In this document: in pieces, positions 3,492-53,483 of the stretch
How positions within the stretch are numbered: the stretch's first letter is position 1
Layout: every line of letters begins with the position of its first letter
Assembly: GCF_056746865.1 (NCBI RefSeq)
Contig: NZ_CM163382.1
Direction: 5' to 3' (one strand)
DNA length: 64,000 nt
Program-made: the position numbers and the translations under genes
The notes under the pieces: generated by a model
The model's database searches: none
Told to the model about the DNA's origin: nothing
What the model saw: only the letters and a program-made list of their open reading frames with translations

Positions 3492-3720
3492 CTTCAGGTA
3501 TCCCCTTTTAAATCCGCAAGTTGCGTGATTTTCTTATCCTCTGATTTATCAGTATTTTTACATGATAACCCTGTTCAATTTGTGGACTAAATCTAGTTTT
3601 GGAAAAATATTCCAACTTTTGTGTTGATGTTGTTCTCTTAAGGTTTTAGATTGCCTGTTATTGAAACCAAGCTGACCGGTCGGCGGTGGTTGAACGGAAT
3701 TATGTTATAAGGACAAAAAG

Positions 3721-35926: not shown

Positions 35927-37090
35927 TTACGCCTTCTTTATATCCTCCATAATTCCAGAGTGGGACATATTTGGGACATTATCACCAAAAATGTCGTCTA
36001 TTTTCCTCGCATGCTCTGTCAAATGATTAGGCGCAAGGTGAGCATACCTACGAACCATTTCTATGGACTCCCATCCGCCCATTTCCTGAAGCACTGATAA
36101 TGGGACGCCTGACTGAATCAGCCAGCTTGCCCAGGTGTGTCTGAGGTCATGGAAACGGAAATCTTCAATTCCTGCACGACGACAAGCTGATAGCCATGAT
36201 GTCTTGCTGTCGATGCGCATCTTCCTGACCGCAGGCGTTGATGTTCCATCTGCTCGCTTAGCCGCCTTGGTATGTACAAACACCCATTTGTGATGCTTGC
36301 CTATTTGATCACGCAACACTTTACAGGCGGTATCGTTCAGCGCCACACCAATGGCGCGGTTTGATTTGCTCTCTTCTGGATTCACCCAGGCAACTCGTCG
36401 CTGCATGTCGATTTGTTGCCATTCCAGATTTATGATGTTCGACTTTCTCAGACCAGTTGCCAGCGCAAACTTGACGACAGATTTCAGTGGTTCGGGGCAC
36501 TCATCAATAAGGCGTTTTGCTTCCTCCTTTTCCAGCCATCTGACTCGCTTGTTTCTGACCGCTGGTATCTTGATGACAGGCGCTTTTTCCAGCCACTTCC
36601 AGTCGCGTTCTGCAGCACGGAGAATGGCCTTTATCATGGCAAGATGCTTTGCCTTTGTCTGAGTTGATACTGGCTTTGGTTCATAAACAGGCAGTTCTTT
36701 ACCTTTCCTGATGGCGGCCTGAACTTTCTGTTTCCATATTTCTTTCGTCTTTCTGTTATGCATTCTGCTTACAGCAGAGTAAATCTTTGCCTCCGAGATA
36801 TCTTTAAGCCTTATACCCTCAAAATGTTCAAGCCAGAACTCAATCCGGCTTTTATCTGAATCGAGAGATTTTTTATCAGCTTTTTCCTCAAGCCATCTTA
36901 GGCAGGCCTCTTCAAAAGTGACATCAGGTAAATCCCCTAGCTTTTCTACTCGCCAGAGTTCTGCTTTTCGCTTGTCGTGCAACTCCTGAGCTTGCCGCTT
37001 GTCCTTTGTGCCAAGAGATTCCTTAATTCGTTTCCCGCCCGGGAGCGAATACGAGGCATACCATATTTCATTTCTGCGGAAGAGTGACAT
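35927..37090 (-). CDS. intD: Tyrosine integrase (DLP12 IntD type)
   Basis: 387 aa; C-terminal catalytic R..HxxR..Y region; adjacent to tRNA. Confidence 0.9.
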
Positions 37091-37317: not shown

Positions 37318-37567
37318 GGTTACCTCTGCTTTTTGAACGCATGTCACGTAACTTCTTAATGTGTTCTGCCGTTTCGATCTCTTCTGCTATCCGATCTGCA
37401 TCAGCTTTATTCACAGGTTCAAAGTCATGATTAAAGCGGAACATGCTGGCGATACATGTTCTGCCTTTTCGGATGTAGTGAACTTTGTTGTGGGTAGAAC
37501 GCAGGATTTTGCAGGGAGTGCCGTGGTGGTCGACGTACCAGGTGTTAGGAAAAATGATTCTGAACAT
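37289..37567 (-). CDS. Hypothetical phage protein
   Basis: 92-aa ORF in early-left operon; no recognisable motif. Confidence 0.35.
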   Translation of the reverse strand: MFRIIFPNTWYVDHHGTPCKILRSTHNKVHYIRKGRTCIASMFRFNHDFEPVNKADADRIAEEIETAEHIKKLRDMRSKSRGNHGIIQPHTR

Positions 37568-38566: not shown

Positions 38567-39247
38567 TCATCGCCATTGCTCCCCAAATACAAAACCAATT
38601 TCAGCCAGTGCCTCGTCCATTTTTTCGATGAACTCCGGCACCATCTCGTCAAAACTCGCCATGTAATTTTCATCCCGCTCAACCACGACATAATGCAGGC
38701 CTTCACGCTTCATTCGTGGGTCATAGTTGGCAAAGTACCAGGCATCTTTTCGCGTCACCCACATGCTGTACTGCACCTGGGCCATGTAAGCCGACTTTAT
38801 GGCCTCGAAACCACCGAGCCGGAATTTCATGAAATCCCGGGAGGTAAACGGGCATTTCAGTTCAAGGCCGTTGCCGTCACTGCATAAACCATCGGGAGAG
38901 CAGGCGGTGCGCATACTTTCGTCGCGATAGATGATCGGGGATTCAGTAACATTCACGCCGGAAGTAAACTCAAACAGGGCTCTGGCGTCGTTCTCGTACT
39001 GTTTTCCCCAGGCCAGCGCCTTAGCATTAACTTCCGGAGCCACACCGGTGCAAACCTCAGCCAGCAGGGTGTGGAAGTAGGACATTTTCATGTCAGGCCA
39101 CTTCTTTCCTGAGCGGGGCTTTGCTATCACGTTGTGAACTTCTGAAGCGGTGATGACGCCGAGCCGTAATTTGTGCCATGCATCATCCCCCTGTTCGACA
39201 GCTCTCACGTCGATCCCGGTACGCTGCAGGATAATGTCCGGTGTCAT
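38567..39247 (-). CDS. exo: Lambda-type 5'-3' exonuclease (Red alpha)
   Basis: 226 aa, near-identical to lambda Exo as I recall it ([40 protein letters not shown]...). Confidence 0.95.
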
Positions 39248-40029
39248 GCTGCCACCTTCTGCTCAGTGGCTTTCTGTTTCAGGAATCCAAGAGCTTTCAC
39301 TGCTTCGGCCTGTGTCAGTTCTGACGATGCGCGAATGTCGCGGCGAAATATCTGGGAACAGAGCGGCAATAAGTCGTCATCCCATGTTTTATCCAGGGCG
39401 ATCAGCAGAGTGTTAATCTCCTGCATGGTTTCATCGTTAACCGGAGTGATGTCGCGTTCCGGCTGACGTTCTGCAGTGTATGCGGTATTTTCGACAATGC
39501 GCTCGGCTTCATCCTTGTCATAGATACCAGCAAATCCGAAGGCCAGACGGGCACACTGAATCATGGCTTTATGACGTAACATCCGTTTGGGATGCGACTG
39601 CCACGGTCCGGTGATTTCTCTGCCTTCGCGGGTTTTGAATGGTTCGCGGCGGCATTCATCCATCCACTCGGTAACGCAGATCGGATGATTGCGGTCCTTG
39701 CGGTAAATCCGGCATGTGCAGGATTCATTGTCCTGCTCAAAGTCCATACCATCAAACTGCTGGTTTTCATTGATGATGCGGGACCAGCCATCAACGCCCA
39801 CCACCGGAACGATGCCATTCTGCTTATCAGGAAAGGCGTAAATTTCTTTCGTCCATGGATTAAGGCCGTACTGGTTGGCAACGATCAGTAATGCGATGAA
39901 CTGCGCATCGCTGGCATCACCTTTAAATGCCGTCTGGCGAAGAGTGGTGATCAGTTCCTGTGGGTCGACAGAATCCATGCCGACACGTTCAGCCAGCTTC
40001 CCTGCCAGCGTTGCGAGTGCTGTACTCAT
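39244..40029 (-). CDS. bet: Lambda-type single-strand annealing protein (Red beta)
   Basis: 261 aa, near-identical to lambda Bet ([59 protein letters not shown]...). Confidence 0.95.
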
Positions 40030-40034
40030 CCGTT

Positions 40035-40331
40035 TTATACCTCTGAATCAATATCAACCTGGTGGTGAGCAATGGTTTCAACCATGTACCGGATGTGTTC
40101 TGCCATGCGCTCCTGAAACTCAACATCGTCATCAAACGCACGGGTAATGGCTTTTTTGCTGGCCCCGTGGCGTTGCAAATGATCGATGCATAGCGATTCA
40201 AACAGGTGCTGGGGCAGGCCTTTTTCCATGTCGTCTGCCAGTTCTGCCTCTTTCTCTTCACGGGCGATCTGCTGGTAGTGACGCGCCCAGCTCTGAGCCT
40301 CAAGACGATCCTGAATGTAATAAGCGTTCAT
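40035..40331 (-). CDS. gam: Lambda-type Gam (RecBCD inhibitor), 98-aa form
   Basis: [60 protein letters not shown]... matches lambda GamS. Confidence 0.93.
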
Positions 40332-40406
40332 GGCTGAACTCCTGAAAATGGCTGTGAAAAAATCGCCCGCGGAATGCCAGGCTGATTCGGAAAACAGGAA
40401 AGGGGA

Positions 40407-40697
40407 TTAGTGATTCAGACCGTTGCCGCGTCCGTCGAGAAAAACTTCCACGAGCAAGTCACGGGTATAAGTGCGCTCAATGCCGCGATGCAGATAAAGT
40501 CGTCCGCGTAAATTAGCTGATGCAGTCCAGGTACCATCTTTGCGTTTGACCAGCATTCCTGGCATGACCGCACCGCGATTAACGGTCTGCGTTCCGTAAT
40601 GTTGATGAACCATAAAAACTCCTGCCCGTAAGCTGGGCTGCTGAACATATAAAGACTTCTGCGCGTATTCAGGCGGTGGATGGCCGCCGGTTGTCAT
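40407..40697 (-). CDS. Hypothetical protein, first ORF downstream of the putative pL
   Basis: 96-aa ORF with GAGG RBS; no recognisable N/kil/cIII motif. Confidence 0.4.
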   Translation of the reverse strand: MTTGGHPPPEYAQKSLYVQQPSLRAGVFMVHQHYGTQTVNRGAVMPGMLVKRKDGTWTASANLRGRLYLHRGIERTYTRDLLVEVFLDGRGNGLNH

Positions 40698-40879
40698 AAC
40701 TAAGCCGCCTCGTTGAAGCGACTAAGGTATGAAATGTTGAGTTGATTTCAGCTGGTCACACCGACGTTCACGCGTCCGTTTCATCCCTCGCACTCCCCGA
40801 AGCCTGCTGAAATTCAAGCTGCGGATCTAAGCGGTCATCGCAACGGTGAATCAGGTAGTTGCCGTATCGTTGTGTTGTT

Positions 40880-40970
40880 GCGATGAACTTATTTAAAACT
40901 ATAGTTGTTTTATCGTCAACAACAAAAGTTGTTTTATTGGTTGTTTTAGATATAACTGGTTGTATTTAGG
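40880..40970. promoter_or_regulatory. Putative OL/pL operator-promoter region
   Basis: Repeated TGGTTGT/ACAACAA half-sites (caacaacaaaagttgtt, ttattggttgtttt, taactggttgtat) shared with the cI-cro intergenic region. Confidence 0.55.
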
Positions 40971-41057
40971 ATGGATTTATTTTGTGACTTGAATCGCATA
41001 GCGATAACTGAAGCGAGGTTATGGTGGTTTTTTTAACGGTGTGTGTGATGAGGGGAG

Positions 41058-41087
41058 GGCAAAAGAAAACCCGGCACGGTGGCCGGG
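41058..41087 (-). terminator. Rho-independent terminator ending the cI-distal operon (tImm analogue)
   Basis: cccggcacggtggccggg hairpin followed on the minus strand by a U-rich tract, directly after the 310-aa gene stop. Confidence 0.7.
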
Positions 41088-41095
41088 TAGCATCA

Positions 41096-42028
41096 CTATT
41101 CGATTTTTTTAACCATGTAGTTACGTCGTGATGTTCCTAATCTTTCATTGTGAATCTCAGAAACGCTTACTACGAGCGATATTCGTTCACCAACTTTATA
41201 TTTACTTTGAATTTCTCCTAACATATCAATCGGATAAGAAGCCTTTATTTTTCCAAGCTCGCTTGCAATCTCCAATTTCCCGTACATGGATAAAATAGCA
41301 AGTTCGCCTGATATATGCTCATCCGGTAGCTGAATGACCTTCGTTAAAGCTAAGCGAGCATTCAGTTTTTTTATATCTTCTGAAGAAATTGACACTTGTC
41401 TGGTACCATCACTTAAAGGTCCAATCCAAGTAAGATCAAAGTTAAGACTATATTTTTCGCACTCATTTATGATGTTTTTTAGGTTAGCTGTTGATTGCGA
41501 ACCAATTTCGGCAATTTTAGCCGTGAATGTTTCTTCATCAATGGATGAGAGTAGTGCAAAAATCTCCTTAACAGCATGACTGGATACTGTTTCGATGAGC
41601 TCGCAAGAACCAGTAGAAAAAGTAACACCTAACTTCGTCGAACCTGGACGCAAGTCTGCCAATCTCATGTCTAATGATTTTTTAACATCAATCGGCACAC
41701 GACTAGAATCTTTCCCAGATCCAAGTCGGTAAACTGCTTTCTGTACAAGGGATGCGAGATTACCTGAAATTACAGATAGAATATCTAACGGAATAGACCC
41801 GAAATCGACCAAAACACCTTTTAATCTCAACTCCATGAAATCACGTAAAGGATGTTGGTTATCGATTGCACGTTGTCTCTCTCGGAGATCGCTCAGATGG
41901 GAGTCAAGTGATCTAAATATAATGTCATCAGCAAATGATCTCCCCTTATTTTGAGCAAGCAGATCCACATCGCGTTGAATGAACGCAATTCGCTCCTTGA
42001 GGGAGTTGAATGTTTTTTCTTCGCTCAT
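41096..42028 (-). CDS. Hypothetical protein, distal gene of the rexAB-position operon
   Basis: 310 aa; AT-rich; start overlaps stop of upstream 157-aa gene (ATGA); no recognisable family. Confidence 0.6.
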   Translation of the reverse strand: MSEEKTFNSLKERIAFIQRDVDLLAQNKGRSFADDIIFRSLDSHLSDLRERQRAIDNQHPLRDFMELRLKGVLVDFGSIPLDILSVISGNLASLVQKAVYRLGSGKDSSRVPIDVKKSLDMRLADLRPGSTKLGVTFSTGSCELIETVSSHAVKEIFALLSSIDEETFTAKIAEIGSQSTANLKNIINECEKYSLNFDLTWIGPLSDGTRQVSISSEDIKKLNARLALTKVIQLPDEHISGELAILSMYGKLEIASELGKIKASYPIDMLGEIQSKYKVGERISLVVSVSEIHNERLGTSRRNYMVKKIE

Positions 42029-42498
42029 AACATTACCCTCACGAGGCCTTTAGGATTCTCCTTCCGATCAAAACCAAACCACCCTCTCCAGTAACTTCGC
42101 CTTTCACTATAATCGATTTCTGGATGATTTTCAGGCAGCAAAAGAACGTCAATGCTGTAGTTTTCTTTAATAAAATCTCTATTTAACAATGAGCTGACCA
42201 ATGGCATCAGCGTGTTTGGCAAAGAGTTTAGGGCCAAATAATCGACGACCACGAGTATATCTATGTCATCAGGTTCAGGTTTCTCTGTAGTGAATGAACC
42301 ATCGATCCACACTTCAGAGAAACATAGACACTGCTGATTAACAAGTTTAAATTGCTCAATAAGCTGTATAAAATTACAGTATAGCATACTTCTTCTAACG
42401 GATTTTGGGAAGGTGTCGACACAAAGAGACTTGATGCCATCACTATCCATATCATGAAATCCTGCTGTAAGAAGAGGTGGGAAGCTAGGCTTTTCCAT
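42025..42498 (-). CDS. Putative minimal nucleotidyltransferase-fold protein, proximal gene of the rexAB-position operon
   Basis: 157 aa; GS-x9-DxD motif (WIDGSFTTEKPEPDDIDILVVVD) typical of the Pol-beta NTase superfamily; AT-rich. Confidence 0.55.
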   Translation of the reverse strand: MEKPSFPPLLTAGFHDMDSDGIKSLCVDTFPKSVRRSMLYCNFIQLIEQFKLVNQQCLCFSEVWIDGSFTTEKPEPDDIDILVVVDYLALNSLPNTLMPLVSSLLNRDFIKENYSIDVLLLPENHPEIDYSERRSYWRGWFGFDRKENPKGLVRVML

Positions 42499-42579: not shown

Positions 42580-43269
42580 TTAACCATGCTTCCTGTACGT
42601 CTGCGGCATGCTCCCAATAACCTTACCGAAGATGAACACCCGGTTCATCTCGTCTTTCTCGATCGGGTCCCACGGTGAGTAGCTTTTGTTATCAGAGATG
42701 ACCAGCAGCTTATCCTTCATCATTTGCAGGCGCTTTACATGGGCTGTGTCGTCGTACAGAAACGCATAGATACCATCACCGTCGAAAGATTTAACTGTGA
42801 TATCAACGAACAGCAGATCACCTGGTTCGATCGTTCCTGACATGCTGTCACCACGCACGTTAATGATGCGGATATTTTCCGCCTTCCTACCATCGAACAT
42901 GTGACGAGCATCGTCAAACGAGTACTCAACCGAGCGTAGAACTTCTACAAACTCACGGTTGATGACTCCCGGCCCAGCACTGACTTCTATATCAAGAACG
43001 TCAATCTTGAAGTATTTGGAATGGCTGACAGTTGATTGTATTGGTTGCACTGTACTGTCTGACATATTTCCAACGCCAGAAGATAACCATTCTGCGCGCA
43101 CACCCAAAGCGTTCGCGATCTCCACGATTTTAGTTGTTTGATTAGCTTTCCCTGTTTCGATTTTCTGAATAGCAGCCTGGCTAACCCCGACCAAATCCCC
43201 AAGCGCCTTTTGTGTAAGGCCTCGCGCTAATCTGGCTTCTTTAAGTCTTTCTGAGAGTGTTGTTTTCAT
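42580..43269 (-). CDS. cI: CI-like prophage repressor (HTH plus S24 LexA-like autopeptidase)
   Basis: 229 aa from MKTTLSERLKEARLARGLTQKALGDLVGVSQAAIQKIE; C-terminal S24 region (GDSMSGT ... K); divergent from cro. Confidence 0.85.
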   Translation of the reverse strand: MKTTLSERLKEARLARGLTQKALGDLVGVSQAAIQKIETGKANQTTKIVEIANALGVRAEWLSSGVGNMSDSTVQPIQSTVSHSKYFKIDVLDIEVSAGPGVINREFVEVLRSVEYSFDDARHMFDGRKAENIRIINVRGDSMSGTIEPGDLLFVDITVKSFDGDGIYAFLYDDTAHVKRLQMMKDKLLVISDNKSYSPWDPIEKDEMNRVFIFGKVIGSMPQTYRKHG

Positions 43270-43274
43270 AGTCC

Positions 43275-43373
43275 AAATGTACAACCAAGGTTTTATTCCA
43301 TCAAACGAAAATGGTTGTTGACTAAAAACAACCATAGTTTTAATCTTGATTCAAATTAACCACGGAGGTTGTT
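43275..43373. promoter_or_regulatory. Putative OR/pR/pRM operator region
   Basis: Inverted repeat ATGGTTGT-n9-ACAACCAT (43311-43335) plus further ACAACCA/GGTTGTT half-sites between divergent cI and cro. Confidence 0.6.
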
Positions 43374-43604
43374 ATGAACCCAGCTATCAAAACAGCGATC
43401 AATATCGTTGGTTCACAAAAGAAACTGGGCGCTGCTTGCGAAGTTTCACAGCAGGCCGTCTATAAGTGGCTTCACAACAAAGCAAAGGTATCCCCTGAAC
43501 ATGTCGGCAGCATTGTTACGGCTACTGGTGGAGTAGTGAAGGCATACCAGATTCGCCCGGATCTTCCGAAGTTGTTTCCACACACCGAAAAGAACGCAGC
43601 TTAA
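43374..43604 (+). CDS. Cro-like HTH regulator (YdaS-like)
   Basis: 76 aa; HTH KKLGAACEVSQQAVYKWL; first gene rightward of the operators. Confidence 0.7.
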   Translation: MNPAIKTAINIVGSQKKLGAACEVSQQAVYKWLHNKAKVSPEHVGSIVTATGGVVKAYQIRPDLPKLFPHTEKNAA

Positions 43605-43673
43605 ATTTCCATTTCACGCTCTTTAACAATAAGCAATCAACTTAACAGTCAATTCAAACTAAAGGAGTCAATT

Positions 43674-44213
43674 ATGCAACCACTTCCATACCAACAGACT
43701 AGCGGATTTAGCCCGACTGCGGTGATAAATCGTTCTCAAACAAAACAGGTGCCAGGCCACGAAAAAATCCGTGATGCCGTCCGCGCCTGGTCGGCTGTAG
43801 ATAATCAGGATGTCGTTGCCACACTCATTGTGAATGAGTATCGGGAGCAGGGCGGCGGCACCATCGATTTCCCTGATGATGTCAGCCGTGCACGCCAGAA
43901 GCTGTTCCGCTTCCTCGATAACAAATTCGATTCTGAAAAATACCGAAATAACGTGCGTGAACTGACCCCGGCAATTCTGGCGGTACTACCGCTGGAATAT
44001 CGCGGTTACCTGGTTGAGCAGGATAGCTTCATGGCTAGGTTGGCTGAAATGGAAAAGGAACTCAGTGAGGCAAAACAGGCTGTCATTCTCAACGCACCAC
44101 GCCACCAGAAACTGAAGGAAATTAGTGAAGGTATTGTATCGATGTTTCGTGTGGACCCAGATCTGGCTGGTCCATTGATGGCGATGGTTACTACCATGCT
44201 GGGGGCGATATGA
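43674..44213 (+). CDS. CII-position regulatory protein (YdaT/CII-like family suspected)
   Basis: 179 aa; position between cro and O; family assignment from memory, not verified. Confidence 0.45.
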   Translation: MQPLPYQQTSGFSPTAVINRSQTKQVPGHEKIRDAVRAWSAVDNQDVVATLIVNEYREQGGGTIDFPDDVSRARQKLFRFLDNKFDSEKYRNNVRELTPAILAVLPLEYRGYLVEQDSFMARLAEMEKELSEAKQAVILNAPRHQKLKEISEGIVSMFRVDPDLAGPLMAMVTTMLGAI

Positions 44214-44299
44214 CAGGTTCAGAAATGGCGAAAGCCGGTCTGCTGGAACAGAACCGACTTTCAGGTGCAAATCGTAACACACTCATTGCGGGAGGAATT

Positions 44300-45229
44300 A
44301 TGGCAAACACTGCTGAGATATTCAATTTTCCAGTGCCGGATGCGGCACAAAAGGAGCCGCGCGTGGCAGATCTCGATGATGGTTATACGCGCATTGCAAA
44401 TGAGTTGCTGGAAGCTGTGATGCTGGCCGGATTAACACAGCACCAGCTTCTGGTCTTCCTGGCTGTCATGCGCAAAACATATGGCTTTAATAAAAAACTG
44501 GATTGGGTGAGCAACGAGCAACTTTCCGAATTGACCGGGATATTGCCGCACAAGTGTTCTGCTGCAAAAAGCGTTCTGGTAAAGCGTGGGATTCTTATTC
44601 AGAGCGGGCGGAATATCGGCATTAATAATGTGGTCAGTGAATGGTCAACATTACCCGAATCAGGTAAGAAAAATAAAGTTTACCTGAAAGAGGTAAATTT
44701 ACCTGAATCAGGTAAGAAAAGTTTACCCAAATCAGGTAAAGGCGTTTACCCGAATCAGGTAAACACAAAAGACAAACTAACAAAAGACAATATAAAACCT
44801 TTTTCGTCCGAGAATTCTGGCGAATCCTCTGACCAGCCAGAAAACGATCTTCCTGTGGTGAAACCGGATGCTGCAATTCAGAGCGGCAGCAAGTGGGGGA
44901 CAGCAGAAGACCTGACCGCCGCAGAGTGGATGTTTGACATGGTGAAGACTATCGCACCATCAGCCAGAAAACCGAATTTTGCTGGGTGGGCTAACGATAT
45001 CCGCCTGATGCGTGAACGTGACGGACGTAACCACCGCGACATGTGCGTGCTGTTCCGCTGGGCCTGCCAGGACAACTTCTGGTCCGGTAACGTGCTGAGT
45101 CCGGCCAAACTCCGCGACAAGTGGACCCAGCTCGAAATCAACCGGAACAAGCAACAGGCTGGCGTGACAGTCGGCAAACCAAAACTCGACCTGACAAACA
45201 CTGACTGGATTTACGGGGTGGATCTATGA
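44300..45229 (+). CDS. O: Replication initiator O (lambda-like C-terminus, divergent iteron-binding N-terminus)
   Basis: Start at ATG 44300 (MANTAEIFNFPVP) with GGAGG RBS; C-terminal ~110 aa match lambda O (PENDLPVVKPDAAIQSGSKWGTAEDLTAAEWMFDMVK...). Confidence 0.85.
   Translation: MANTAEIFNFPVPDAAQKEPRVADLDDGYTRIANELLEAVMLAGLTQHQLLVFLAVMRKTYGFNKKLDWVSNEQLSELTGILPHKCSAAKSVLVKRGILIQSGRNIGINNVVSEWSTLPESGKKNKVYLKEVNLPESGKKSLPKSGKGVYPNQVNTKDKLTKDNIKPFSSENSGESSDQPENDLPVVKPDAAIQSGSKWGTAEDLTAAEWMFDMVKTIAPSARKPNFAGWANDIRLMRERDGRNHRDMCVLFRWACQDNFWSGNVLSPAKLRDKWTQLEINRNKQQAGVTVGKPKLDLTNTDWIYGVDL
44640..44770 (+). repeat. Origin iterons (ori) inside the O gene
   Basis: Four or more direct repeats of tacc(c/t)gaatcaggtaa(g/a), giving the repeated LPESGK peptide; followed by an AT-rich stretch. 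Confidence 0.75.
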
Positions 45230-45927
45230 AAAACATCGCCGCACAGATGGTTAACTTTGACCGTGAGCAGATGCGTCGGATCGCCAACAACATGCCGGAA
45301 CAGTATGACGAAAAGCCACAGGTACAGCAGGTAGCGCAGATCATCAACGGTGTGTTCAGCCAGTTACTGGCAACTTTCCCGGCGAGCCTGGCTAATCGTG
45401 AGCAGAACGAACTGAACGAAATCCGCCGCCAGTGGGTTCTGGCTTTCCGGGAAAACGGGATCACCACGATGGAACAGGTTAACGCAGGAATGCGCGTAGC
45501 CCGTCGGCAGAATCGACCATTCCTGCCATCCCCCGGACAGTTTGTAGCCTGGTGCCGGGAAGAAGCATCCGTTATTGCCGGACTACCAAACACCAGCGAG
45601 CTGGTTGATATGGTTTACGAGTATTGCCGGAAGCGTGGCCTGTATCCGGATGCAGAGTCTTATCCGTGGAAATCAAACGCGCACTACTGGCTGGTTACCA
45701 ACCTGTATCAGAACATGCGGGCCAATGCGCTTACTGATGCGGAATTACGGCGCAAGGCTGCCGATGAACTGACTTGTATGACCGCGCGAATTAACCGTGG
45801 TGAGGCGATACCTGAACCAGTAAAACAACTTCCTGTCATGGGCGGTAGACCTCTAAATCGTGCACAGGCTCTGGCGAAGATCGCAGAAATCAAAGCGAAG
45901 TTCGGACTGAAAGGAGCAACTGTATGA
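45226..45927 (+). CDS. P: Replication protein P (DnaB helicase loader)
   Basis: 233 aa, near-identical to lambda P. Confidence 0.92.
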   Translation: MKNIAAQMVNFDREQMRRIANNMPEQYDEKPQVQQVAQIINGVFSQLLATFPASLANREQNELNEIRRQWVLAFRENGITTMEQVNAGMRVARRQNRPFLPSPGQFVAWCREEASVIAGLPNTSELVDMVYEYCRKRGLYPDAESYPWKSNAHYWLVTNLYQNMRANALTDAELRRKAADELTCMTARINRGEAIPEPVKQLPVMGGRPLNRAQALAKIAEIKAKFGLKGATV

Positions 45928-46226
45928 CGGGCAAAGAGGCAATTATTCATTACCTGGGGACGCATAAGAGCTTCTGTGCGCAGGACGTTGCTGCGGTAAC
46001 AGGCGCAACAGTAACCAGTATAAATCAGGCTGCGGCTAAAATGGCACGGGCAGGAATCTTGGTCGTTGATGGTAAGGTCTGGCGAACGGTGTATTACCGG
46101 TTCGCTACCAGGGAAGAACGGGAAGGAAAGGTGAGCACGAATCTGATTTTCAAGGAGTGTCGCCAGAGTGCCGCGATGAAACGAGTGTTGGCAGTGTATG
46201 GAGATATGAACTTAAACTTGCTGTGA
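45924..46226 (+). CDS. ren: Ren (Rex-exclusion resistance) protein
   Basis: 100 aa, matches lambda Ren (MTGKEAIIHYLGTH...). Confidence 0.88.
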   Translation: MTGKEAIIHYLGTHKSFCAQDVAAVTGATVTSINQAAAKMARAGILVVDGKVWRTVYYRFATREEREGKVSTNLIFKECRQSAAMKRVLAVYGDMNLNLL

Positions 46227-46474: not shown

Positions 46475-47977
46475 TTAAATTGCATCTGCAAACTCTGGGG
46501 TTTTTCGCTCAGGTATAATTGATGAGTTGCTGTTGTCACTTTTTTTATTTTCATGATTACGAATAGCCAATGACTCATTAAAGTCTTTTGCGACTGCTGT
46601 CTCAATAAATTCAATTTCTGAATCAGAGTGTTTTTTAACAGCTTCTTTGATCTCATCCAGAGTAACATAGAAAAACTCTTTTCTACGATTTACAAGATTG
46701 ACTCTCTTTTTATCGAAGACATCATGTAGTTTTTTTTCTAATGATGGAGCGTCCTCCGAATAAATCATGGCATGTACATCAAAAATAAAAGGAACAGATG
46801 CATCACCGAGCTCATTTACACGGTCTTGCGGATCAAGACGTCGTGTCATGCCTATTTTATAAACATTCTCCCCAAAAGAACCTATGTTCGAAATAATATA
46901 AACATGACCTTGTTTGGTTTGTTGTGCCATGGATAATGCTCTTTGATGCTTTGATTCAGCCTGCGACAAACTCTGTTCTAGTTCGGCAATGCGATTTTCG
47001 AGGCGCTGCTTCATGTCACCAGTAACTTTTTCCATTTCCTTTCTTGCAGCTTCAATTGCTTTTTTATAACGGCGCTCTTCTGCCTCTGCGTCTTGCATGG
47101 CCTTTTCTATTTCTCGTTGTGCACGCTCCTCCTCTCTCATTTGTGCCCTTATTTCTGCCTGTTCTTCTTTTTCTTTCTGTTTTTGCTCACGATATTCATG
47201 GGTAAGCCACAATTCCTCAAGTTTTTTATTGAGGTATTTAGTGTTTATATATATGTGATTTTGCTCGTTTAGTTTATTTATGGCCTCAAATGCCTTTGTG
47301 ATGCGTTCTTCCATTTTAGTGATGTTTTTCCACGTGCAATTGCTAATTGCAGCATCACATTCATTATTAAATGCTCTAGTAGTTAGCCTGATATTTCTGT
47401 CTGTCATTTTTTTACCCTCTGCTCGAGAGCCTTCAACAGTCCATTGGGTTGTACAATATACTGCGCCAGAGTGGGTTTTATCCCGCAGCATTAATTTCTG
47501 TTCATCCCTGATGGATTTTATTTTGTTTTTAAATTGCTCTGAATCTTCAAAATTAAAATGAGGTTCGTAAAATCCTAGTTCGGCTAGCTCAACATCTTCT
47601 GAATAAATAGAAATTTGCCTTACTAGTTTATCATATATTTCTTTCTTCTCTTTATAAGTTCTTCTTAGCTCTTGGATTTGTTTATTGATACCATCCATTT
47701 TTTCAATGGTGTTTGTTAGTTCATTATTGGCATTTTCTTTTACTTTTAGGGATTCTTCTTTTATTATGGAGCATTCTTGCTCTGTTTTCTCAATAAGCTT
47801 CTTACATTCTTCTTCTACATTAAAATAATCTGCAAAGCGAGATTTGTATTCTTCATTTTTTTGATTGCTATCACTTAATTCTAATTGTATTTTTTTGATG
47901 CGTTTGATTGCAGCTATATAAAGAACAAGAACAACCAATAAAAATATGATTGCAAGTAATAGAGGAGTTTGAGTCAT
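46475..47977 (-). CDS. Membrane-anchored coiled-coil protein with C-terminal T5orf172/GIY-YIG-like domain (DUF4041-like middle region)
   Basis: 500 aa; N-terminal TM helix (LLLAIIFLLVVLVLYIAAI); long E/K/R-rich coiled coils; C-terminal GHVYIISNIGSFGENVYKIGMTRRLDPQDRVNELGDASVPFIFDVHAMIY; antisense to flanking phage genes; strongly AT-rich. Confidence 0.7.
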   Translation of the reverse strand: MTQTPLLLAIIFLLVVLVLYIAAIKRIKKIQLELSDSNQKNEEYKSRFADYFNVEEECKKLIEKTEQECSIIKEESLKVKENANNELTNTIEKMDGINKQIQELRRTYKEKKEIYDKLVRQISIYSEDVELAELGFYEPHFNFEDSEQFKNKIKSIRDEQKLMLRDKTHSGAVYCTTQWTVEGSRAEGKKMTDRNIRLTTRAFNNECDAAISNCTWKNITKMEERITKAFEAINKLNEQNHIYINTKYLNKKLEELWLTHEYREQKQKEKEEQAEIRAQMREEERAQREIEKAMQDAEAEERRYKKAIEAARKEMEKVTGDMKQRLENRIAELEQSLSQAESKHQRALSMAQQTKQGHVYIISNIGSFGENVYKIGMTRRLDPQDRVNELGDASVPFIFDVHAMIYSEDAPSLEKKLHDVFDKKRVNLVNRRKEFFYVTLDEIKEAVKKHSDSEIEFIETAVAKDFNESLAIRNHENKKSDNSNSSIIPERKTPEFADAI

Positions 47978-48276
47978 TCGTGCTATTCCTTACGGACAAT
48001 TTAAGACGTTTTGTATTAAATCCTGTTCAATGTGTATGCGGGTGATTGCTACCGCTTACAATCTTCATAATTATCAGTTAGATAGACTCGCTAGTAAATA
48101 ATTTCATTTTTTGCAATATTCTTATTGAATATTTCAATTTATGAAATGAACTCTTTATCCTTTCAAGGTGAAAGGTTTCTTCTTCGGAAATATTTGCTCT
48201 CGTGTGACGTATAAAGACCTTTGATTTTCAAAAATCAGTAGGGAATAATATAGTTACTGTCGGCCTGAACACCCGG

Positions 48277-48375
48277 TGGTGGGGTTGCGCTAAACGGGGA
48301 CGTTTATGCGCACACACAATCCAAACTCTCATCTCCATTCACAGATGCAGAAATGCACCTACGATTTTTTACATT
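48277..48375 (+). repeat. Direct repeat copy 1 (~90% identical to 50221-50315)
   Basis: gcgctaaacggggacgtttatgcgcaca...cacagatgcagaaatgcacctacgatttttt. Confidence 0.85.
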
Positions 48376-48467: not shown

Positions 48468-48789
48468 TTGTAACTGTTGTAGCAGCTATGGATGTGATCA
48501 TCATGGTGTCCATTTACTGGGGTTGACGACATGATTTATCCGGCGCTATATTCTGTGCGTTGCCGCAAAATCGGCACACGGGATTGGCGTCCCGGGATAC
48601 TACTCAACGCATACCGCGTTAAGCGGTTTTTTTGTGCGCTAAGCACGGCTATGCCCAAATTATGGTGGGCTGTGTGAGGGCTTCTTCGGAAGCGCCGGGT
48701 TTGAGTAGCCGGTTACGCCAACCTTACACAGTTCACCACCAGTCGATTGGCGTCGTTGGTGGTGATGGTTAACCTGATGAGGTGATACT

Positions 48790-49398
48790 ATGACTACTCA
48801 ATTAGCATTCCACAAAACGACGTTTACCCCGATTTGCCACAATAACAGAATTTGGCTTACTGCCACTGAAGTTGGTTTAGCACTGGAATATGCGGACGAT
48901 AAAGCAGTTCAGCGCATTTACTCTCGGCACTCAGATGAATTCACAGATATGATGACAAGGGTGGTCAAAGTGACCACCCCTCGTGGAATGCAGGAGTCTC
49001 GAGTATTTAGCCTTCGCGGAGCCCATTTGATCGCCATGTTTGCTCGTACTCCTGTGGCCAAAGAATTCCGCCGCTGGGTTCTGGATATTCTCGATCGAGA
49101 AGTTCAACAATCCCCAATCACAAAACAATTCACTGATAACGAACTTTGCACACTCGCCTGGTTATGGCGAGCAAGTGATACGATGTTAACCGCCTGCCAG
49201 AACGTTACGCCCCTTCTTCAGGTCGCAGAGCATCGCGAAGCAGGTAGATTCACTTCAATCGAACAAGAATATCCTCGGATACTCAACAGGGCGCGAGAAA
49301 TCCTTGCCAGAGAAACGGCGCATGTAAAATTCCAACCGTGGCAGGATGATAAGTGGAGTCGTGTGTTACCATATTTCCGTCAGAATCTGTTGCAATAA
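48790..49398 (+). CDS. Bro-N/antirepressor-like protein
   Basis: 202 aa; N-terminal Bro-N-like region (LAFHKTTFTPICHNNRIWLTATEVGLALEY...SRVFSLRGAHLIAMFARTPVAKEFRRWVLDIL). Confidence 0.6.
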   Translation: MTTQLAFHKTTFTPICHNNRIWLTATEVGLALEYADDKAVQRIYSRHSDEFTDMMTRVVKVTTPRGMQESRVFSLRGAHLIAMFARTPVAKEFRRWVLDILDREVQQSPITKQFTDNELCTLAWLWRASDTMLTACQNVTPLLQVAEHREAGRFTSIEQEYPRILNRAREILARETAHVKFQPWQDDKWSRVLPYFRQNLLQ

Positions 49399-50143: not shown

Positions 50144-50220
50144 TTTTCAGCACATTTGATTTCCAATAATCAACCAGCCATAATCATGCCATTGGAGCTT
50201 GAACAACTCCGGTGACTTCT

Positions 50221-50315
50221 GCGCTAAACGGGGACGTTTATGCGCACATACAATCCAAACTCTCTTCTCCCTTCACAGATGCAGAGATGCACCTGCGATT
50301 TTTTGCATCCAGCGT
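50221..50315 (+). repeat. Direct repeat copy 2
   Basis: See copy 1. Confidence 0.85.
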
Positions 50316-51742: not shown

Positions 51743-51827
51743 AGTCAGAGATAACAATCAACTAATACTGTTTTGTTGATTTTTGCTTGTAATTGGCGTT
51801 CTGGTCTGAGTTTTGTGGAGTAAGTTG

Positions 51828-52211
51828 ATGCGTGATATTCAGATGGTTCTTGAGCGTTGGGGAGCGTGGGCGGCTAATAATCATGAAGATGTGACCTGGT
51901 CGTCCATTGCCGCCGGTTTTAAGGGATTAATTCCTTCAAAAGTAAAATCTCGCCCGCAATGTTGTGACGATGACGCGATGATCATTTGCGGGTGCATGGC
52001 CCGTCTGAAAAAGAACAACAGCGATTTGCACGATTTATTAGTAGATTATTATGTAGTCGGTATGACATTCATGTCACTGGCAGGTAAGCATTGCTGCTCT
52101 GATGGTTATATCGGGAAAAGGTTACAAAAGGCTGAGGGCATAATTGAAGGGATGTTAATGGCATTAGATATCCGGTTAGAGATGGATATCGTTGTTAATA
52201 ACTCTAATTAA
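51828..52211 (+). CDS. quuD: Late-gene antiterminator Q (QuuD type)
   Basis: Cys-rich ([12 protein letters not shown] ... CC); last gene before the late-promoter region; start could be 51813. Confidence 0.7.
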
Positions 52212-52400: not shown

Positions 52401-53483
52401 TTAGAACTGGTAAACCAGACCTACAGCAACGATGTCATCAGTATCAATACCAGCTGTTTTGGTAAACTTACTATCGTCAATTAAGTTGATTTTGTAATCA
52501 ACAAAAGTGGACATGTTTTTATTAAAGTAGTAAGTAGCACCGACATCGACATACTTGACTAAGTCTCGGTCACCATGAACACCAAGGTCTTTACCTTTTG
52601 ACTGAAGGTAAGCAACAGATGGGCGCAGACCGAAGTCAAACTGATATTGTGCTACTGCTTCAAAGTTTTGTGCTTTGTTTGCAATATGGTTATTACCAAA
52701 AACGGTCATATTCTGAGTTTCAGAATATGTGGTAGCCAGATAGATATTGTTCGCATCATATTTCAGGCCTGCAGCCCATACTTCCGCATTTTTGCCGGAG
52801 GCATTGAATTTGCTCTTACCATAGGCGACCTGACCGTCAGTGCGATCTGATTTAGCATAGGTTGCACCCACGCCGAATCCTTCATACTCATAAGTAGTGG
52901 AGAAACCGAAACCATCACCATTGGCTTCAGTTACGTCAGTGCGGTCATTTTTACCCTGATACTGAGCAGCAAAGTTCAGGCCATCGACCAGACCAAAGAA
53001 GTCGTTGTTACGATAAGTTGCAACACCAGTAGTGCGACCAGTCATGAACACATCTGTTTGGGTCCAGGTATCACCACCGAATTCTGGCAGGACGTCAGTC
53101 CACGCACCGATGTCGTATGCTACACCGTAGTTACGGCCGTAATCGATTGAGCCGTAATCACCAAATTTCAGGCCTGCAAATGCAAGACGGGTTTTGTCTT
53201 TGGAAGAACCTTGAGATTCAGCGCGGTTGCCTTTGAATTCATATTCCCACTGACCGAAACCAGTCAGTTGATCGTTGATTTGGGTTTCACCTTTGAAGCC
53301 AAGACGGGCATAAGTAGTATCACCATCATCTGCATCATTAGAGGAGAAGTAGTGCTTAGCATTAACTTTCCCGTACAGATCCAGCTTGTTACTGTCTTTA
53401 TTATAAATTTCAGCTGCCTGAGCAGACATCGCCATCAGTACTGATGCAGCTACAGCAGAAATTGCCACTGTTAATTTTTTCAT
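52401..53483 (-). CDS. nmpC: General porin (OmpC/OmpF/NmpC family), uninterrupted
   Basis: 360 aa; signal peptide [23 protein letters not shown]; C-terminal ...GLVYQF. Confidence 0.88.

Follow-up and report, generated by a model that had tools for sequence, protein, structure and literature searches.

The 64,000-nucleotide stretch of contig NZ_CM163382.1 (RefSeq assembly GCF_056746865.1) analysed here, referred to below as the window, consists of host chromosome up to about 35.9 kb and then of a lambdoid prophage. Two adjacent rightward genes of the prophage were studied. Their sequences identified them as cro and cII of its immunity/establishment region and placed this lambdoid prophage in the phi80 regulatory type.

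43374–43604, plus strand: cro-like gene, 76 residues, helix-turn-helix (HTH) protein of the YdaS family, ATG start
43674–44213, plus strand: cII gene, 179 residues, phi80-CII/YdaT family, ATG start

In the initial annotation of this DNA, both open reading frames (ORFs) had been given with exactly these boundaries and assigned to the cro and cII positions. The assignment was borne out by the gene order. The cro-like gene leads the rightward early operon, divergent from cI and next to the operator repeats, and the pair stands directly upstream of O-, P- and Ren-like genes. Shine-Dalgarno-like sequences were located 6 nt before 43374 (GGAGG) and 7 nt before 43674 (AGGAG).

Cro and CII proteins

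The 76-residue protein matched PF15943 (YdaS_toxin) in Pfam with 62.2 bits against a cut-off of 30 (E = 4e-17), with sub-threshold secondary matches to P22_Cro and HTH_3. It was assigned to PHROG 35, 'transcriptional repressor', and its top PDB sequence matches were the Cro proteins 3bd1 and 5w8y. The identity with K-12 Rac YdaS was 30%.

The 179-residue protein matched PF06254 (YdaT_toxin) with 103.5 bits against a cut-off of 21 (E = 8.5e-30). This was the only match in the Pfam scan of the protein, and the lambda CII family (Phage_CII) was not matched. It was also assigned to PHROG 163, 'CII-like transcriptional activator', over residues 17–179 (E = 3.9e-67). NCBIfam gave nothing for cII, and PADLOC gave nothing for cro or cII. 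In a tblastn search against phage records, the identity with phi80 CII was 66% over the full length, and that with CII of mEp237, HK225, HK639 and CobraSix was 52–73%. The similarity with K-12 Rac YdaT, 35% identity, was limited to the HTH domain. Judged by these matches, the protein belongs to the YdaT family and is orthologous to phi80 CII. The YdaT/phi80-CII family was small: with E ≤ 1e-3 and 50% clustering it had 110 representatives, of which many were fragments.

The YdaS and YdaT families had been named tentatively in the initial annotation, and the Pfam scores confirmed both. Its likening of the pair to Rac-type modules rather than to lambda cro/cII agrees with the Pfam assignment, the fold, the identity with Rac YdaT and the missing lambda CII match. 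No clear homology to canonical CII was found, and in this respect the annotation stands on its own terms. The closest named relative, phi80 CII, was absent from it.

The AlphaFold2 (AF2) model of CII, obtained with a 37-sequence alignment, had a mean predicted local distance difference test (pLDDT) score of 84. Residues 1–25 were predicted to form a disordered N-terminal tail. The predicted HTH domain, residues 29–113, is all-alpha and POU-like and has five helices (29–43, 45–58, 70–82, 88–104 and 107–113), with an 11-residue loop, 59–69, between the HTH helices. The C-terminus of the model consists of a long helix, 119–138, and two more helices within 143–178. In a Foldseek search of the PDB with this model, only the two YdaT structures, 3c4r and 8bt1 ('YdaT transcription regulator, CII functional analog'), were found with a probability of 1.00 and a template modelling score of about 0.68 on the target; all matches beyond these two had E > 1. 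The recognition-helix arginine, R79, was invariant in a 10-sequence alignment, both in the nine close relatives of the phi80 type and in Rac YdaT; in the 37-sequence alignment its conservation was at least 90%. It corresponds to R57 of Rac YdaT and R60 of CP-933P YdaT, the recognition-helix arginine that is essential for DNA binding in both proteins.

Two members of the family have been characterised experimentally. Jurenas et al. determined CP-933P YdaS and YdaT to be transcription factors and no toxin-antitoxin pair; YdaT turned on a PRE-like reverse promoter (PRE, promoter for repressor establishment), and the homology with phi80 CII was remarked (PMC8630535). According to Prolic-Kalinsek et al., CP-933P YdaT is a tetramer with a POU-like HTH, and the sequence TTGATT-N6-AATCAA was footprinted (PMC9986795). 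In the case of Rac, Wons et al. footprinted ATGATT-N6-AATCAA over the ydaT start codon and determined a 29-fold box-dependent activation of the reverse promoter for racR; Rac and CP-933P YdaT recognised each other's site (PMC11879457). By analogy with these proteins, CII of the window would be a tetramer which activates a reverse PRE-like promoter of the repressor gene.

Candidate PRE within cII

The cro–cII junction of nine diverged phages was aligned, and the conservation was located within the first 22 codons of cII. The following elements were recognised in this region of the window.

43722–43739, strand not assigned: candidate CII-binding box GTGATAAATCGTTCTCAA with a TGAT...TCA core, cII codons 17–22, +49 to +66
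43701–43696, minus strand: candidate PRE −10 hexamer TAGTCT with a G at −14, 20 nt beyond the box on the strand opposite to cII

Nucleotide conservation was determined with 204 unique sequences from 6 lineages. The start ATGC, positions +11, +14, +20, +22, +23, +27 and +28, TGAT at +50 to +53 and TC at +63 to +64 were invariant in all 204. Positions +27 and +63 are third-codon positions, and their codons encode four amino acids each (T, N, G or S, and S, A, N or C, respectively). Similarly, the codons over the invariant TAnnnT encode T-S, N-T, N-S, G-N and S-S. As the amino acids vary at invariant third-codon positions, it is the DNA that is constrained, not the protein. The conserved box and −10 DNA falls within the codons of the CII tail 1–25, the part of the protein that was disordered in the AF2 prediction.

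Read on the minus strand, the conserved bases form an nTGA-N9-ATCAn box, an interval of 20 nt and TAnnnT. The hexamer is TAGTCT in the window, and TATTGT, TATTTT, TACCTT and TACTCT were found elsewhere. With the hexamer set at −12 to −7, the centre of the box falls at about −41.5, where activators overlapping the −35 region classically bind, as lambda CII does at pRE.

The same arrangement was found in more distant members of the family. The footprinted Rac box is followed by TATGAT at the same spacing on the racR strand (K-12 Rac sequence 3652–3696). The hexamer is also TATGAT, at the same spacing, in a CP-933P-type phage, and TAGCAT in a 61%-identical Klebsiella relative. In a blind test with five distant members, TAnnnT was located at +20 in Chris1 (TATTAT), Aeromonas pAEv1818 (TAACAT) and Kp4865-4 (TATGAT), and at +21 in Actinobacillus pPE4 (TATGCT) and Kp4882-1 (TATCAT). 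Over 14 lineages, the offset from the box to TAnnnT was 20 nt in 12 and 21 nt in 2, and a single TAnnnT was seen at all the remaining offsets from 0 to 26. The 20-nt spacers between the two elements were about 30% identical in these lineages, i.e. random.

The position of the box relative to the gene was −6 to +11 in Rac-type genes and about +49 to +66 in the phi80 branch, Chris1 and Aeromonas. Due to the latter position, the candidate promoter of the phi80 branch is overprinted by an N-terminal extension of 18 codons. We infer from this pattern that cII contains a PRE with its box at 43722–43739, its −10 at 43701–43696 and a start near 43689, from which transcription would run antisense through cro into cI. 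CII of the window would bind this box and activate the candidate PRE.

Searches of the whole window added little. WTGATT-N6-AATCAA with up to three mismatches gave 127 sites versus 130.5 expected, which is uninformative save for a single exact match. TGAKA-N6-TMTCA with up to one mismatch gave 6 sites versus 5.4 expected, i.e. chance level. The combination of box and −10 in PRE geometry was found at the cII-internal site and at one chance-level host match, with 1.5 expected. A weak box-like sequence was noted at 37427 near xis. The promoter scan of the minus strand at 43400–43760 revealed no consensus sigma70 promoter, as would be expected for an activator-dependent PRE. The TTGAnT/AGTCAA repeats of the 69-nt cro–cII spacer were also considered as CII sites and were rejected, since the same cII allele has a different, 30-nt spacer elsewhere.

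Assortment of cro and cII

For 327 loci representing four CII sub-lineages, the upstream neighbour of cII was extracted. Next to the phi80-type cII, at least 15 clusters of cro were found, with less than 60% identity between clusters. The cII allele of the window was found with two unrelated cro types, in 45 and 37 loci, and the cro type of the window was also found with cII alleles of only about 50% identity. The partner cro proteins included YdaS-type, plain HTH_3 and true lambda-Cro (PF09048) types. The cro gene and the cII gene represent neighbouring mosaic modules and not a co-evolving couple; with at least 15 cro partners of the phi80-type cII, they do not form a co-inherited, mutually dependent pair.

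Interval between cII and O

The features following cII, of which the replication genes are covered by PF04492/PF06992 and PHROGs 277, 109 and 142, were determined as follows.

44220–44325, minus strand: oop-like small antisense RNA unit, from a promoter scan and the phi80 alignment
44300–45229, plus strand: O-like replication initiator
45226–45927, plus strand: P-like gene
45924–46226, plus strand: Ren-like gene

The 86-nt spacer between cII and O aligned with the phi80 M3 RNA, annotated as 'homolog of lambda oop'. The oop-like unit has a promoter TTGAAT-17-CATAAT from 44325 to 44297 with a predicted start near 44290, and a terminator hairpin from 44263 to 44229 followed by a T-rich tract. Seven of the 15 pairs of the hairpin showed compensatory changes. 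No Rfam family was found for the oop-like RNA. The longest O reading frame starts at 44210, over the cII stop, and the real start was set at 44300 based on the alignment with phi80 gene 15 and the PHROG match of O, which begins at residue 31. This start leaves room for the oop-like RNA.

Boxes in the nin region

Two further boxes were located downstream of the early genes.

50156–50173 (box–promoter module to 50184), plus strand: box TTGATTTCCAATAATCAA, identical to the published YdaT box and its only exact match in the 64 kb
48221–48249, plus strand: box copy TTGATTTTCAAAAATCAG with one mismatch (AATCAG) and a −10 AATAAT, a second box–promoter module

The palindrome TTGATW-N6-WATCAA is expected 0.017 times per window. 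The sigma70-like promoter TTGATT-17-CATAAT, which heads the ninB-to-Q unit, is overlapped by the box at 50156 in its −35 (TTGATT) and spacer. Downstream of the promoter there are a conserved hairpin, a short ORF, a stem like that of a terminator, and ninB/ybcN. The promoter is annotated in the phage 82 record, where the hairpin is given as a 'possible regulator-binding site'. Among 120 IMG/VR loci fetched by the sequence downstream of the 50156 box, the palindrome was perfect in 100, and the half-sites were invariant across 13 spacers and 15 left flanks. At the homologous site of phi80 and HK225 the sequence is TTGATA-N6-TATCAA, a symmetric change in both half-sites. The palindrome was also found at the homologous site of phage 82 and PhiR34_1, with flanking genes annotated as YbcK–YbcN; in lambda, neither form of it was present at 27–46 kb. 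The palindrome at 50156 has the appearance of an operator for a dimeric regulator, and its sequence equals the YdaT box.

The 48221 box overlaps the −35 and the spacer of a promoter that heads an isrK/C4 antisense RNA/antirepressor-like cassette at 48546–49398. The Rfam matches there, on the plus strand, were the set of isrK (RF01394), C4 (RF01695) and RF03163, with 58.7 bits for isrK and 74.8 bits for the C4 antisense RNA; the C4 a1b1 target scored 39.6 bits, below gathering. The isrK/C4/a1b1 elements stand directly upstream of a 202-residue antirepressor-like ORF, a P1/Gifsy-style antisense-controlled cassette in the nin region.

A module of about 150 nt is present in duplicate on the plus strand, at 48221–48375 and 50156–50312. 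Its components are the palindromic box and promoter, a 5' hairpin, a short ORF ('orf33' of phage 82) and a stem resembling a terminator, with a T-run. Conservation of the module was seen in phi80, HK225, 4A7 and phage 82, and inserted morons are flanked by it. The module could be a small RNA, a leader or a recombination joint, and Rfam held no family for the hairpin–terminator element after the nin box.

It is conceivable, though doubtful, that TTGATW-N6-WATCAA palindromes overlapping the −35 and spacer of small promoter modules are a second class of targets of YdaT-family CII. With the box at −35 to −18, binding would repress. In loci with an identifiable cII, 47 of 48 were phi80-type irrespective of the state of the box, so this comparison did not discriminate, and the association between box and phi80-type cII may reflect lineage alone. 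A site of the 50156 type is not mentioned in the 2025 Rac paper. If CII did bind at both of these boxes, transcription directed to the antirepressor and the late genes would be shut off directly by the same protein that switches on cI. This would be a repressive counterpart of lambda paQ and, as Rac and CP-933P YdaT share this specificity, would imply cross-talk between co-resident prophages.

Proposed mechanism and alternatives

The mechanism that we consider to be correct with a probability of about 80% combines the above elements. CII would be an oligomeric HTH activator of the YdaT fold that acts from the box in the 5' end of its own gene on a PRE for cI, Cro would be an interchangeable repressor of the YdaS type, and the oop-like antisense RNA would be a modulator. 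In this mechanism the Cro analogue, encoded by the first gene of the PR operon, presumably acts on the operators between cro and cI. By analogy with Rac and CP-933P YdaT, a CII tetramer would bind the inverted repeat and turn on the leftward, otherwise silent PRE. The PRE transcript, antisense through cro into cI, would establish repression after infection. Since PRE would lie inside cII, activator gene and target would travel as one cassette that can be combined with any cI/cro immunity module, which would explain the free reassortment of cII with these modules. The oop-like RNA between cII and O would round off the lambda-like layout. The ORFs, family membership, predicted fold, gene order, cro/cII assortment and the nucleotide conservation of box and −10 were observed directly in this work; DNA binding, tetramer formation and reverse-promoter activation come from the literature on relatives.

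Several points weigh against this mechanism. The box of the window differs from the published WTGATT-N6-AATCAA by four mismatches, with the TGAT...TCA core kept. The published promoter sites lie elsewhere: PracR4 is about 190 bp from the Rac box (PMC11879457), and in CP-933P the start site itself is covered by the box (PMC9986795). For this reason the −41.5 geometry is a reinterpretation and not a confirmation. The TATGAT hexamer of Rac suggests a box-proximal promoter that is not discussed in the published work, in which PracR4 is credited with the activation. The combination of box and −10 was found neither upstream of int nor near Q, thus no counterparts of pI and paQ were detected. In the PHROG scan of small leftward ORFs Kil was found, and neither N nor cIII. 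The literature searched contained no experiment on CII of the window or of phi80. Finally, a role of the conserved cII nucleotides at the RNA level is an alternative that also counts against the mechanism.

This RNA-level alternative would attribute the conservation of codons 1–22 to an initiation structure, an RNase site or a small-RNA target, with the CII site elsewhere. The conserved stretch adjoins the start codon, mRNA structure near start codons commonly constrains synonymous sites, and several TTGAnT-like repeats lie within the cro–cII spacer of the window. However, the conserved bases comprise a palindromic core identical to that of the footprinted YdaT box, together with TAnnnT at a fixed spacing. 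Rac-type genes carry both elements partly outside the ORF, so these are not tied to codon position, and the spacer repeats are a property of a single cro module, being missing when another cro precedes the same cII allele. We therefore consider the RNA-level explanation very unlikely. Even less credit is given to a toxin-antitoxin or toxin-repressor module, in which the 179-residue protein would be a toxin checked by the neighbouring HTH protein or by CI; a toxin-like character had also been raised in the initial annotation. The names of the Pfam families and the RefSeq product do say 'toxin', and over-expressed Rac YdaS or YdaT is toxic (PMC5700377, PMC5700373, PMC11879457). The names, however, go back to a prediction of 2007 that was not borne out by later experiments (PMC5917428, PMC8630535). 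CP-933P YdaT is non-toxic (PMC8630535), and the toxicity of Rac YdaT was traced to the activation of host rcsA (PMC11879457). Jobling, arguing from genetic context, equated YdaS and YdaT with Cro and CII (PMC5917428), and published work has shown the two proteins to be functional analogues of Cro and CII and no toxin-antitoxin pair (PMC5917428, PMC8630535, PMC9986795, PMC11879457). The predicted fold, an HTH DNA-binding domain with an oligomerisation helix, has no enzymatic domain; a toxin module is also contradicted by the lack of PADLOC matches and by the fact that cro and cII assort independently, with 15 or more types of partner. The module is carried in the cII position by viable, plaque-forming temperate phages, and the suggestion of a toxin-like protein was not upheld.

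A more serious but still improbable alternative is that CII mainly represses, blocking rightward transcription through the boxes in cII, at 48221 and at 50156, without activating a PRE. It would then serve autoregulation and be a brake on the expression of O/P, nin and the antirepressor. YdaT is termed a repressor in the CP-933P structural paper, with its main site over the transcription start (PMC9986795), the PydaST promoter is also protected by Rac YdaT (PMC11879457), and the overlap of the 48221 and 50156 boxes with −35 and spacer is a repressor-type position. Nevertheless, such a roadblock leaves unexplained why, in 14 of 14 lineages, an invariant TAnnnT stands 20–21 nt from the box on the opposite strand. 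For both characterised relatives, measurements showed that a reverse promoter is activated, in the case of Rac 29-fold and dependent on the box (PMC11879457, PMC8630535). Repression by CII and activation of PRE are compatible roles and not mutually exclusive. The activation of PRE from the cII-internal box is preferred.

Comparison with known systems

The window has the layout of phi80, where the order is gene 30 (the cro analogue), cII, the oop-like M3 RNA and the O-like gene 15. CII of phi80, mEp237, HK225, HK639 and CobraSix has the same length, N-terminal tail and two-helix C-terminal extension as that of the window, and the genes carry the embedded box and −10 at the same codons. The window differs from this group by its cII allele and its cI/cro immunity module, which has a YdaS-type cro and a 69-nt spacer, and its cII is joined to lambda-type O/P/ren and defence morons. 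The Cro protein resembles the YdaS/P22-type Cro family (Rac YdaS, Xylella prophage Cro 3bd1) in the PF15943 match and in being encoded by the lead gene of the rightward operon, whereas beside the phi80-type cII it is just one of the at least 15 interchangeable types.

CP-933P YdaT (8bt1) and the O6 homologue (3c4r) belong to the same Pfam family, occupy the cII position and have the HTH and the long helix, with 27% identity. The recognition-helix arginine and the long loop between the HTH helices are shared with CII of the window. The latter is about 40 residues longer than CP-933P YdaT, with a disordered N-terminal extension of 18–25 residues and the conserved helices 143–178 as extras. The CP-933P site is TTGATT-N6-AATCAA; the candidate box of the window is a degenerate GTGATA...TCTCAA.

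Rac YdaT, a CII analogue (PMC11879457), has its box at the start of the gene and a −10-like hexamer 20 nt further on the opposite strand, as in the window. The Rac box overlaps the start codon, in contrast to the box of the window at +49 to +66. Rac YdaT is toxic via host rcsA, whereas nothing points to toxicity of CII of the window; the Rac prophage is defective, whereas the module of the window type was found in live phages.

Lambda CII is encoded at the same gene position and has the same proposed task at the leftward establishment promoter. Its activator site straddles the −35 inside the 5' end of cII, as proposed for the window, and the oop antisense RNA of lambda has its match in the oop-like RNA. 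The two CII proteins have no sequence or Pfam relationship and are functional analogues only. Lambda CII has a different oligomer geometry and recognises a TTGC-N6-TTGC direct repeat, whereas the site of the YdaT family is an inverted repeat (PMC9986795). In addition, lambda has pI, paQ and cIII, none of which was detected in the window. A switch working differently from that of lambda had been considered possible in the initial annotation; the regulatory logic is lambda-like, and the differences are confined to the fold of the protein and the DNA site.

Other features of the prophage

The order of the prophage is int, excisionase, exo/bet/gam, kil, the immunity region, O/P/ren, the nin region, Q, and lysis and head genes. 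The nin region is rich in morons, and a Q-like antiterminator is located at 51813–52211. The features to the left of cro were as follows.

35927–37090: int, with the excisionase gene next in the prophage order
38567–40331: exo/bet/gam
40407–40697, minus strand: kil, from the PHROG scan of small leftward ORFs
40891–40908, minus strand: OL-like copy of the operator, ACAACTATAGTTTTAAAT, from a pattern built from the two OR repeats
42580–43335, minus strand: CI-type repressor with HTH_3 and Peptidase_S24 (PF01381, PF00717, PHROG 4)
43281–43346, strand not assigned: right operator (OR) region, from a repeat search and reading of the sequence

The OR region contains two 18-nt direct operator repeats, 43281–43298 and 43328–43345, and a 25-bp palindrome, 43311–43335; ACAACC half-sites are common to the repeats and the palindrome. 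A putative PR-like promoter, TTGACT (43318)-17 nt-TAATCT (43346), is overlapped by the operators. The pattern of the OR repeats gave three sites in the 64 kb versus 0.31 expected, and the only one outside OR, at 40891–40908, probably marks the pL region to the left of two morons after cI.

The cI reading frame has 22 codons ahead of the residue at which the matches to repressor families begin (43269–43335, minus strand). As the PHROG match begins at residue 23, the true start is likely Met23, at 43269. The hexamer TACATT, 6 nt upstream of this ATG, suggests a leaderless transcript from PRM, the promoter for repressor maintenance, like in lambda and CP-933P.

Between kil and the pL-like operator (40300–41100, minus strand), the sole candidate for N or cIII is a 31-residue arginine-rich ORF with a TTG start at 40722–40817, and the equivalent gap of PhiR34_1 is likewise without an annotated gene. 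Two genes at 41096–42498 (minus strand), which follow cI where lambda has rexA/rexB, matched the PADLOC candidate defence pair PDC-M63B (E = 4e-42) and PDC-M63A (E = 4e-42; DUF6932 in Pfam); the pair is missing from PhiR34_1, an otherwise near-identical phage. Just after ren, a 500-residue protein (46475–47977, minus strand) matched the defence protein PD-Lambda-1 (PADLOC E = 6e-198; PHROG 1847), and its gene is opposite in strand to the early right operon that surrounds it. A 360-residue ORF at 52401–53483 (minus strand), just downstream of the Q-like antiterminator, has a signal-peptide-like N-terminus and a C-terminal aromatic residue and looks like an OmpC/NmpC-type porin. Such an arrangement would resemble the right arm of the DLP12/phage 82 type.

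Distribution and significance

The 1.8-kb cI–cro–cII stretch was 97–99.7% identical in the temperate isolates PhiR34_1, PhiR5_1, IdasGreatGrand, PhiR47_2 and PhiR26_1. CII of phage Turner was 100% identical to that of the window, and related alleles were found in phages 4A7, D2 and Perceval. The cro–cII DNA matched 2,222 of 5,426 complete E. coli genomes, in 1,507 of them over at least 80% of its length. In IMG/VR, more than 586 relatives were found; a first locus search there had given loci of at least 96% identity only, which were useless for footprinting, and was re-seeded with diverged CII variants. The module is the standard cro/cII pair of a very common type of E. coli lambdoid prophage, a kind already known.

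The finding itself is ordinary, as the family is known from the genetics of phi80, the structure 8bt1 and functional studies of Rac and CP-933P. Among the complete E. coli genomes listed, the RefSeq/PGAP label of cII is 'toxin YdaT domain-containing protein'. Thousands of RefSeq genomes label a lysogeny regulator as a toxin, which invites misreading and is contradicted by the experimental literature. For the family as a whole, the predicted PRE would be of the class-II type and activator-dependent, with the centre of the box at about −41.5 and the −10 after 20–21 nt. In the phi80 branch, this PRE would be embedded in the first 22 codons of its own activator gene, a placement that differs from those in the Rac and CP-933P papers.

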